Below are positions 6,866-59,106 of a stretch of 64,000 nt of DNA, one piece after another. This DNA is from Balanoglossus misakiensis (lineage: Eukaryota; Animalia; Hemichordata): positions 11,139,995-11,203,994 of the forward strand of contig CM082585.2 of assembly GCA_040954595.2 (NCBI GenBank), given 5' to 3'. The notes beneath the pieces are model-generated. The model was not told where the DNA came from and ran no database searches. It saw only the letters and a program-made list of their open reading frames with translations. The translations under genes were made by a program, and so were the position numbers. Every line of letters begins with the position of its first letter. Within the stretch, counting starts at the first letter, position 1.

Positions 6866-12112
<5,247 letters not shown>

Positions 12113-44517: not shown

Positions 44518-44760
44518 TTATAATTTTAAAAGTCCCAAAAAATTGGCACCCTCTTCCCTTGATATTCCATTTGGGTTGCCTTGCTCGTCCACGGGTAGAA
44601 CGACAGATACAGTTTGGTGTGGTTGTATTAGTGTAATCCCGGCCGTGTAACATGAGTGGTACGGGTATTTCGACTCAAAGTACTTGCATGACAAGAATTT
44701 CTTTTTTCCAACATTCACCGAGTAGCCAACAAAGAGATTGTTGTCATCTTTAAAGGTCAC
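44518..44760 (-). CDS. TNF-C terminal exon T3
   Basis: acag|VTFKDDNNLFVGYSV...FLSC...YHSCYTAGI...ANFLGLLKL*. Confidence 0.85.
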   Translation of the reverse strand: MTFKDDNNLFVGYSVNVGKKKFLSCKYFESKYPYHSCYTAGITLIQPHQTVSVVLPVDEQGNPNGISREEGANFLGLLKL

Positions 44761-47700
44761 CTGTAAGTAAGGCACAACCAGAAGTAGGAGTCAGGTGGCG
44801 AGGCCCTTTATTTGTTGTTTAACCGTGGGGGCGGGAAAGATGATCGTCAGGAGAGTTTGACCAGCCCGACGAACGTACTGTCGGGGCTCATGTTGATCAC
44901 GCGATCGGGATACCGAATGTGAACTTTGAGCTTGCTTCCCTGCTGAAATCTGGCTATCCCGCCCGTAAAACAGGTATTATACTTCGCCCCAGAATAAGCA
45001 GTGTGGGTACAGGACAGGATTGCGTCATCATCGACAGACACAGCGTGGCTCATGTTCTTGTCATCATAATATAACACCTGGAAGCAGATAAAACACGTTG
45101 TCATGTTGTGGACTCCTGACTTCAATTGGAAAATTTAGGGTCTAATATGATCACATCTGTGTACTCTTTCACTTTGTTCTGTACATATTTTCTGGAATAA
45201 TTTTCACAGCCCTTTAAAACTGTTGAGATGAGCTCAACAACGGTTATCGTTCACCCTGTATAAAATAACCTTTAAACTGGCGGCCATAGTCAGAACTAGA
45301 CCCGCCATTAAAAACAATGCCTTTGTGCTCACTGTGTACAATACAACACTGTCCTTGTGTCAAATGTGAATAGAATCGGCCTGAGTGATGGCTCCGGACA
45401 TGGAAACATTGTAACAAAATAGTCGTCTGGTCGCCATATTGGATCGTGTCACCGAACAAGTTGACGTGTACATGTACAACATCACAGTGTATTTTCCTTG
45501 TGCCAAATGTGAACCAATTTGGTTCTCACAGCCCAAGAAACGACAGCGGACGCGTGAACGGATGGAGCTTAGTCTATGTAGCTTAAGCTAACTAAACATC
45601 TGTTCACTTAAATTTGATTATTCCTACAAAGGTTGTCACTGGGGTCAGTTGAACTTCCGCTTCATACTGTATTTTCACTGTTACTGTTGACTGTGCGGGC
45701 ACATGAACAAGACCTCCGGTATAACATGAGCTGAGTTCCGGGGCTCTGCTATATATATAATTAATACATCTGAAAAAGAGGTCTCCGCCAATGTCAATAT
45801 AGTGACCAACAAATGGATTGCCTTTATACGTTACCTAAAAATCAAGACAGAAAATAAGCAATGATTAACTCATAATACATTTATGTTGAACTCTGCACAC
45901 ATACTAGTTTCAAACAAAGCTTGAATTGTGTTACTTGGCTACAAACCCATTGCTACGGTAATTTATCAAGTCTCGCAAGATCTCGTGATGAGCAGAATAT
46001 GGTCTATTGAGATCACATTTACCTGGCTATATACATAGTACAGGCCAGCCTCTTCCACGATAATCTCCCCGTCTATGTTCTTTCGAAATTTACTCTTGTC
46101 ATCGTTCGTCATCCAGTCTGCGTACTTCCAGAAATTAATGGTTCCATCTGTAATTAAAACCAAATGTTTCAATTTTTGAAATCAAAAAAGAAAACATAAT
46201 GTTCACCGTCTTATTTTCATTTTAAAAACACAACACTTCTTTGTATTTTCGCCATAGAGTTAACACACAGAGGGTGGCCATTTTGATTTTCAAATCTGAG
46301 GCAATTTTGTTCGCCCATTCAAAACTTTGCACGGTGACCCCATTTTTTATTCTCAATCATAGTACTGTACAAAATAGCAGAGTTTCAAACTATTCATTTG
46401 ACACAAGGAAATTAAAATCCCAAATCAACTACCTTACCTTTAATCTCAACAACGCCTCCATTTTGGCGATCGCCCACAAAATGAGCCGCAATGACACTCG
46501 ACTAAAACAGATTTTAAGAAGAAATGAACAAAGTGTCAATCGTCTGACAGAACGAAAGTGAAAGCGAAAACTCACGTGGGCCAGTGTGTACAGCCGCTTC
46601 GTTATCCCCTTCTAAATGGGCAGCGATTAACTCAGGCTGGTAAAAACGAACATACACAACCAATATTTAGAAGTAATTTTCACGACTGATTGTAACGTCA
46701 AATGTATTGGTTTTCACAAACCATTATAACAATGATGATTTGGAATTTATAATTTCTTAATTTATGCCAATCTGATGGAGATCTCTGGATTTATTTTGTG
46801 CCTAGCTCGGGCAATGAAAATACACACAGCACCACACGTTGGTTTTGCGCTTTAGCGTATAACAGCGGCAACAACAACAAAACAGCAGCAACAACAACAA
46901 CAACAACAGCAACAAATTGCAACAAAACACAAGCAAAATATCCCCAAATACTGTTATGCTTAGTGAAGAATTAGAGGAAGGGGAAAGTTGAACTAGACCT
47001 TAATTAATTCCCACTATATTTCCTATTAGACAAAAAAGTATGCTTACCGCTTGGCCAGGTTCACCTGCAAGGCAAAACACAAAGGGATAAGTTTAATATG
47101 AGAAAAAAATACTTTTCGGTCGTTGTTAGAGAATTCTGACTCGAATAGTCCATATAGGATAATTTTAGTCTAGGTTTTCCTAAAACTTCTTACACATAAA
47201 AGAACTTAATGATGCCAGCCAGAATTAAATTTAATATATTTGAACACAGTTTTGTTGATGAAGTTAAACATATTAAATCATACACATTCACGTACCTGGT
47301 TCTCCCTTTTCGCCTTTTTCTGAAATATAACGGATAAAAATGGAAAACAGTCAGTTCAACTTAGCTGTTATTGAGCTTGGCTAGAAATTTAAGTGTACAG
47401 CAACCATCTCAAATCTCCTTCACAAAGTCCTGTCATGTTCCGGGACTGTATAGCTACTTCAAATAAGCAAAGGTTCAAAGGTACTTATACTTACCCCCCT
47501 TCCGCTTTTTGCCCTTTTTCTCTCCTTTTTTCTTTCCTCTTTTAACGCGATCTGTGGAAAAAATCAACATAATAAAAACATTACACTTCAAAGCAACAAG
47601 AATTTCATAATTTGCCTCTTTCCTGTCCTCAAAAGAACTTCAGTGACAAGAACAAACGTTAACGCTTTAAGTACCCTGATGAAACTCACCCTTTCCGATA

Positions 47701-48396
47701 TCTTCGATATCATCCTCCAGGCCATATTCACCCAGGTCTCCCTTGGACTTTGAATTTTCGTAAGGAAAAGAACTCTCCATGTCAGCGTCGAAGTCAACTT
47801 CAACTAGATTACCCTTCTCGTTCGAATTTCGCGACATAACGCCTCTCTCTTCATTTTCACTGTATTCATGACCCCTGATAATACTTGCCATGATTTTCTA
47901 CGGAGATAAAAAAACAATCGCAATTAAACTACAGTCTCAATCGTTTGCCAATGGTTAGAATGTCAAAAGCATGGACTAGATACATAACGATAAAACTAGG
48001 GCGGTGAGCTACTGGTCTTATGTGAAATATCAGTAGTTTTGAGTGTTGTTTGCGAACACTCACCTGCATAAGAGGTCCGGTTTCATACGCTTGGCCCGTG
48101 TTCATGTTTGTGCCAACTTCCGTCTTGTCGGGCTTAGCCTCGTTGTGCACAACGGGGCCAACATTGTTAGCCCTCGGACGGCTGCACTCTTCTGGTAGAG
48201 CTTCAAGCGCCTCCTGCAATTGGCCGACTATACACTCCAGCTGGTCGATCCTCCTGCTTTGACCAACTTCGTGCCAAACGAACACCGGAACTAACACCAA
48301 AACAATTAACACAGCGCTACCATTCGCCCACGAATTCCGCGAAGGCTTCGTAGCGCTAGCAGGCTCTGCGGTGATTAGACCCTGGTGGTCAACCAT
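44518..48396 (-). CDS. TNF superfamily ligand C, ectodysplasin/Eiger-like, with alternative exon arrays
   Basis: Exons 48396-48064 (TM), 47897-47690, ~47551-47495 (RVKR furin site + KKKGEKKGKK), collagen micro-exons 47319-47296 and 47064-47048, alternative A exons, constant exon 46147-46023 (..EEAGLYYVYSQ), three terminal exons. Confidence 0.88.
44847..45077 (-). CDS. TNF-C terminal exon T2
   Basis: ccag|VLYYDDKNMSHAV...SCT...KYNTCFTGGIA...YPDRVINMSPDSTFVGLVKLS*. Confidence 0.85.
   Translation of the reverse strand: MLYYDDKNMSHAVSVDDDAILSCTHTAYSGAKYNTCFTGGIARFQQGSKLKVHIRYPDRVINMSPDSTFVGLVKLS
45604..45834 (-). CDS. TNF-C terminal exon T1 (absent from the ORF track)
   Basis: ttttag|VTYKGNPFVGHYIDIGGDLFFRCINYIYSRAPELSSCYTGGLVHVPAQSTVTVKIQYEAEVQLTPVTTFVGIIKFK*. 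Confidence 0.82.
   Translation of the reverse strand, partial: VTYKGNPFVGHYIDIGGDLFFRCINYIYSRAPELSSCYTGGLVHVPAQSTVTVKIQYEAEVQLTPVTTFVGIIKFK
46438..46501 (-). CDS. TNF-C alternative A-strand exon b
   Basis: ttttag|SSVIAAHFVGDRQNGGVVEIK|gtaag; 64 nt, phase 0 to 1. Confidence 0.8.
46576..46636 (-). CDS. TNF-C alternative A-strand exon a
   Basis: ccag|PELIAAHLEGDNEAAVHTGP|gtgag; 61 nt, phase 0 to 1. Confidence 0.8.

Positions 48397-52261: not shown

Positions 52262-59106
<6,845 letters not shown>

Follow-up and report, generated by a model that had tools for sequence, protein, structure and literature searches.

In the acorn worm Balanoglossus misakiensis, a TNF-family gene that we call TNF-C carries two neighbouring exons, A1 and A2, which we read, at a probability of about 0.7, as a tandem duplication of the exon that encodes strand A and the loop after it in an EDA-like TNF ligand, one copy being spliced into each mRNA and its loop lying on the predicted receptor surface. 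The window, that is, the whole stretch of 64,000 nt of contig CM082585.2 that was analysed, holds a tandem array of four TNF-family genes on the minus strand, at about 34340-30900, 39577-36640, 48396-44518 and 59070-52262. TNF-C is the third of them and TNF-D, its upstream paralogue, the fourth. The closest named proteins come from the acorn worms Ptychodera flava, Glandiceps talaboti and Saccoglossus kowalevskii, none being identical to the window. The other two genes of the array have, as far as they were read, a single strand-A exon each, and the one at 39577-36640 encodes a long C-terminal extension beyond the TNF domain. From their translations, we take the neighbours to be an elongation factor G-like gene (8273-11608, plus strand), a TAF9-like gene (22683-21657, minus strand) and a PH-domain gene (63880-62443, minus strand).

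Architecture of TNF-C and of its exon pair

In the TNF-C protein, a type II anchor is followed by a stalk, which carries a furin-type motif and five Gly-X-Y triplets, and then by a TNF domain; the protein thereby combines the type II anchor and the C-terminal TNF homology domain (PF00229) of a TNF superfamily ligand. All exons lie on the minus strand. Coding exon 1 (48064-48396), an open frame from the ATG at 48396 to a GT donor, contains the start codon and the hydrophobic anchor segment, and exon 2 (47690-47897, 208 nt, AG/GT borders) encodes an acidic stalk. Exon 3 (47495-47551) encodes a basic stretch and what we take, from its pattern, to be a furin-type site, both features recurring in the G. 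talaboti orthologue, and exon 4 (47296-47319) a short Gly-X-Y stretch. The common donor to A1 or A2 is that of exon E5 (47048-47064), which ends in phase 0 at 47048. The TNF domain is split across an A exon, the constitutive exon E7 and a terminal exon. A1 (46576-46636, 61 nt) and A2 (46438-46501, 64 nt) each encode strand A followed by a loop of their own, and are separated by an intron of 74 nt (46502-46575). E7 (46023-46147, 125 nt, phase 1 to 0; Pfam PF00229, E 9e-5) starts in phase 1 at 46147 and encodes the middle of the domain. It is followed by the alternative terminal exons T1 (45604-45834), which groups with P. flava T1 in the tree, T2 (44847-45077), which groups with P. flava and G. 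talaboti T2 (98/90), and T3 (44518-44760), which groups with G. talaboti T3 (100/90); T3 alone gave no Pfam match.

The first-pass annotation had given A1 and A2 these coordinates and lengths, the 74-nt spacing and an entry in phase 0 with an exit in phase 1, all of which we confirmed, together with canonical AG/GT borders. It had also claimed that including both exons, or neither, shifts the frame, and this proved correct: the A1+A2 form runs into a stop at 46448 and the form without an A exon into one at 46111. When a single A exon, either A1 or A2, was combined with T1, T2 or T3, all six models had full frames of 351-356 aa; the six models with both A exons or none all stopped early. The premature stops lie 133 nt (A1+A2) and 86 nt (no A) upstream of the last junction. 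Since nonsense-mediated decay acts on stops more than 50-55 nt before that junction, both are far enough from it, and rare both-or-neither transcripts, with their early stop, would be removed by this route. Two other ways around the frame were rejected, namely retention of the intron (A1, intron and A2 add up to 199 nt, which keeps the frame count), which brings in two stops, and use of a cryptic AG at 46543 in place of the A2 acceptor, which leads into an in-frame stop.

Splice sites were scored with a weight matrix that is rough, built from this window on 22 donors and 26 acceptors of our own gene models, some of them approximate. On this rough scale the donors of A1 and A2 are the best two of the 72 GT sites between E5 and E7, and A1 has the best donor of the 72 and the second-best of the 36 acceptors in that interval. 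The A2 acceptor has a low score (1.8, with lower values in just 3 of the 26 training acceptors), which may reflect either a regulated site or a poor matrix. The same scale bears on the proposal that other splice sites join A1 and A2 in frame, so as to yield a constitutive protein with two strand-A segments. Although 20 two-exon paths are open for such joining, the best via a cryptic donor at 46592 within A1, each needs a site scoring -2.0 or less, that is, under all 22 training donors (the lowest being 0.5 with this rough matrix). In addition, two strand-A segments occur in none of 33 P. flava TNF-D models and none of four G. talaboti models, even though an in-frame joined form would have been open to annotation, and we regard this route as extremely improbable.

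As had been noted in the first pass, A1 and A2 differ mainly in the loop. Their strand cores share 6 of 8 residues, while the loops show no relationship (local score 8, p 0.72 against shuffles); the codon at the junction encodes His following A1 and Asp following A2. Compared with G. talaboti, the A1 loop matches that of A1 (p 5e-5) and the A2 loop that of A2 (p 3e-4), and neither matches the other type (p 0.39 and 1.0), so that the loop identities are not due to chance. A1 and A2 are thus neighbouring exons of similar sequence and like length, in the same frame, free of stops and bordered by canonical sites, as is characteristic of clusters of mutually exclusive exons. They also conform to the use of one copy per functional transcript, with an early stop when both or neither are included and very weak sites needed for in-frame joining.

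Probable use of both exons and proposed mechanism of exclusion

The G. talaboti gene LOC144442193 is the orthologue of TNF-C: its stalk matched best (66 of 172 aligned residues), and the TNF-domain tree places it in the TNF-C group (support 91/85, not starred). Among its four clustered RefSeq models, X2 and X3 carry the A1-type exon and X1 and X4 the A2-type exon. RefSeq models are automatic and their exon combinations may be computationally chained; their junctions rest on RNA-seq. Both-or-neither transcripts are absent from these protein models because such models, by construction, cannot show them. A1 retains 7 of the 10 loop residues of its G. talaboti counterpart. Compared with A1 of TNF-D, it shares 12 of 18 residues, 10 of these 12 being encoded by different codons (pS 0.78, pN 0.15, Fisher p 6e-5 over the whole period since the duplication). 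For E7 and T1-T3 the same TNF-C to TNF-D comparison gave pN values of 0.30-0.45, a weaker constraint than that on A1. By this codon comparison, A1 is under purifying selection.

The TNF-C-like genes of P. flava present a different picture, with A2 only in all five models (four of four for one gene, plus the single model of a second), and therefore A1 can be lost or silent. By analogy, A2 could be the working exon in B. misakiensis and A1 silent or very minor, the more so as the selection test averages over the time since duplication and is blind to a very recent loss. Against this, A1 has an open frame and the strong splice sites described above, is present in the G. talaboti models and keeps most of the loop residues found there, and we consider its silence improbable. 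The annotated use of A1 and A2 in the orthologue and the selection on A1 instead support well the earlier claim that the exons are mutually exclusive and both in use, and on these sequence data A1 and A2 are very probably both employed, one at a time. As separate observations on P. flava, E7 and T1 in the TNF-C-like model X3 come from a second copy, which suggests a duplicated block, and in X4 a T3-type exon stops early in unrelated sequence. A further protein, XP_070553352.1 (570 aa, on another contig), apparently has two consecutive TNF domains, of which the second has a strand resembling that of A2 and a long loop; it may be a fused model.

TNF-D has the same exon pair in collinear DNA (55647-55814, minus strand), made up of A1 (55814-55760), a 52-nt intron and A2 (55707-55647). 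Besides A1/A2, it contains an optional loop exon X (55137-55175, minus strand, 39 nt, phase 1 to 1), three terminal exons and optional stalk exons, and it has a long collagen exon where TNF-C shows just its five Gly-X-Y triplets and furin-type motif. For the P. flava orthologue of TNF-D we counted 33 models (labels up to X34, with X22 excluded, from at least 34 RefSeq isoforms). A1 is found in 16 and A2 in 17 of the 33, exon X in 21, and all 12 combinations of A, X and terminal exon occur. A loose motif is common to TNF-D exon X, the A2 loop of TNF-C and an optional amphioxus exon. Direct similarity of exon X to A2 was not significant (p 0.20); exon X may be what is left of a third A exon.

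The introns between A1 and A2, 74 nt in TNF-C and 52 nt in TNF-D, are the two shortest of 13 modelled introns, all others measuring at least 138 nt. By match to the branch-point consensus, the best candidate in the 74-nt intron is the A at 46536, at a distance of 40 nt from the A1 donor; it lies just past the cryptic AG, and the AG that follows it is that of the A2 acceptor. A second candidate lies 51 nt from the same donor. In TNF-D the intron is 52 nt in total, and no usual branch point can sit 50 nt from the donor. The available text of PMC5740500 gives a distance of less than 50 nt between donor and branch point as the criterion for steric interference in mutually exclusive splicing. In the 74-nt intron the predicted branch point, some 40 nt away from the donor of A1, would be too close for A1-to-A2 splicing, and the short intron is, from its sequence, probably the primary block to the joining of the two exons. 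Local RNA structure over A1-A2 was not more stable than in shuffled sequences (z 0.49), and a search for docking-selector pairing near the A exons yielded none convincing that was common to TNF-C and TNF-D.

The pair had been described in the first pass as frame-locked. This is true in that both or neither are out of frame, but it is a generic property, because 377 of 629 human clusters of mutually exclusive exons likewise have lengths not divisible by three (PMC5740500, available text); moreover, the frame removes mistakes only afterwards. Joining reads are reported there for just 83 of those 377 clusters, and therefore other mechanisms usually act before the frame. In the present case the short intron is the likelier primary block.

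Predicted receptor surface and the choice of terminal exon

AlphaFold2 models of G. talaboti X2 (A1) and X1 (A2) display the same strand order, with strand A provided by either exon (residues 202-207 from the A1 exon and 203-208 from the A2 exon); the A exon thus encodes a structural element of the folded domain in both predicted orthologue structures. The loop after strand A is the less confident part of the two models (pLDDT 75 and 68). With the A1 model (X2), Foldseek returned EDA-A1 as the top match (E 6.7e-12); by sequence against PDB chains, an APRIL-BAFF fusion came first and EDA next.

According to the accessible text on the EDA-EDAR crystal structure (PMC9918506), EDA binds EDAR in an unusual 1:1 mode and contacts the receptor through three patches. 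Patch II makes the most electrostatic contacts and includes Gln256, Ser258, Ala259, Gln261 and Asp265, and patch III includes Tyr310, Tyr311, Lys340, Thr341 and Tyr343; the changes A259E and D265G abolish EDAR binding. We aligned the acorn worm domains with EDA-like vertebrate sequences, the EDA rows being recognised by likeness to PDB chains. EDA positions 256-264 were covered by the A exon and patch III by the terminal exon, with position 265 at the junction of the A-exon segment. Therefore, the A and T exons swap the equivalents of two of the three patches, and that of patch I stays in E7. The first-pass suggestion that the pair is a specificity cassette appears well founded in this respect, the A segment aligning to the EDAR-binding residues Gln256, Ser258, Ala259 and Gln261, and we lean towards the view that the choice of A exon would change receptor preference or affinity.

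We give some credence, short of even odds, to another reading, in which the exons are mutually exclusive but bind the same receptor and the swap tunes stability, trimer packing, glycan or matrix binding, or affinity only. The two predicted folds are nearly identical, and mutually exclusive exons are described in the text seen of PMC5740500 as mostly modulating, not altering, function. However, the loops are unrelated to each other and yet each is conserved across species, and A259E and D265G, which fall in the aligned EDA segment, each suffice to abolish EDAR binding (PMC9918506, accessible text). If the preferred reading of a change at the receptor surface holds, each mRNA would carry one of two loops forming part of the predicted receptor-binding surface. 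With three terminal exons, up to six TNF domains would be possible in TNF-C and twelve in TNF-D, and these would differ in two of the three patches by which human EDA contacts EDAR.

The count of six presumes that A and T exons are chosen freely, as in the first-pass description of an independent cassette. Were the A choice coupled to the choice of terminal exon, there would be fewer than six forms and the cassette would not be independent. Consistent with coupling, the four models of G. talaboti LOC144442193 contain just three of the six A-T combinations (A1+T3, A2+T3 and A2+T2), gene models of this kind not phasing the A and T junctions. Moreover, a 15-nt intron element just after A2 (46395-46409) is complementary to 45352-45366 and 45495-45509, both between T1 and T2, these being its only three copies in the window, and a possible pairing of this element could link the two choices. 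The longest perfect inverted repeat is 15 nt against at most 14 in 300 shuffles; yet two of the 23 real tiles contain longer ones, of 19 and 28. We noticed the pairing post hoc, and other intron pairs have like duplex energies. A third point in favour of coupling is that no AATAAA or ATTAAA follows T1 of TNF-C (45603-45078, 526 nt) before the next terminal exon. The same two signals are also absent after T2 of TNF-D (52631-52511) up to the next terminal exon; at these two ends a variant signal may be used, or transcription may read through. On the other side, all twelve combinations occur among the P. flava TNF-D models, though these are possibly computationally chained. On balance, we think coupling unlikely.

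Comparison with known systems

Our literature search, with most subscription papers outside its reach, found no description of these exons. The term splicing is absent from the accessible text of three papers on TNF evolution (PMC7674686, PMC12843592 and PMC11762692), and the term TNF from the main text of PMC5740500 and PMC9741552. Already known are the isoforms, as unlabelled automatic models in two relatives, and the splicing mechanism, which is of a known kind. The RefSeq entries of G. talaboti LOC144442193 (X1-X4) and the P. flava XP_070538496-532 series contain the same exon choices as annotated isoforms, named only "uncharacterized", "ectodysplasin-A-like" or "eiger-like" and given no interpretation. 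What appears to be new is the proposed combinatorial use of tandem-duplicated exclusive exons inside the TNF domain. The evolution of the TNF family outside vertebrates was called very poorly understood in a 2026 paper (PMC12843592, in the text available), and non-vertebrate TNF diversity has been counted in genes. The two genes described here could yield up to 18 TNF domains by splicing, and gene counts would therefore understate the ligand repertoire. As the swapped pieces match two of the three EDA receptor patches, they would also represent natural module swaps for TNF receptor choice and bear on the origin of the EDA-A1/A2 switch.

Exclusive exons born by tandem duplication, as described in the available text of PMC5740500 and PMC9741552, resemble A1/A2 in being adjacent and homologous, of the same phase and similar length, and part of a folded domain. 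Their lengths not divisible by three and the short intervening intron are further points in common. Unlike those sets, TNF-C has an internal cluster and a terminal cluster inside one domain of 150 residues.

Dscam is a case in which several exon clusters diversify an interaction surface, yielding thousands of forms of a receptor. In contrast, TNF-C and TNF-D would have six to twelve forms and encode ligands, and no conserved docking-selector pairing was seen in them.

Similar arrangements were found in other deuterostomes. Among named matches, one amphioxus gene combines at least three terminal exons with an optional loop exon that is similar to the A2 loop (uncorrected p 0.007), two terminal exons occur in the crinoid Antedon, and Branchiostoma lanceolatum shows alternative segments in the loop. 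A loop segment also distinguishes two Diadema records, which may be separate loci. The alternative terminal exons of amphioxus and crinoid, and the optional loop exons of amphioxus, sit at the same junctions as those of the acorn worm. Homologues came from a search with the terminal-exon profile; a search with E7 alone gave no matches. The terminal-exon tree recovered no shared ancestry of the duplications across phyla, the amphioxus and crinoid copies tending to group within their own lineage. Neither this tree nor that of the TNF domain placed the gene relative to vertebrate EDA, the deep branches being unsupported either way. It is tempting, if doubtful, to suppose that combinatorial splicing at receptor-contact patches served early deuterostomes to diversify an EDA-like ligand, that the acorn worm codes select receptors, and that EDA-A1/A2 is a reduced or re-invented form at the same junction.

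Vertebrate EDA is a close parallel to TNF-C in that both are TNF ligands with a Gly-X-Y stalk, and EDA has the closest solved fold. Splicing very probably alters the TNF domain of TNF-C as it does that of EDA, where it decides between EDAR and XEDAR (PMC9918506 and PMC12971886, accessible text). The last intron of EDA is placed at c.924 in the available text of PMC5015951, and in our alignment the EDA-A1/A2 switch sits at the same last junction where T1-T3 join. In EDA, however, two residues are added or dropped via a shifted splice site, whereas in the acorn worm whole duplicated exons would be swapped at two places, with a code of 2 x 3 in TNF-C and 2 x 2 x 3 in TNF-D.
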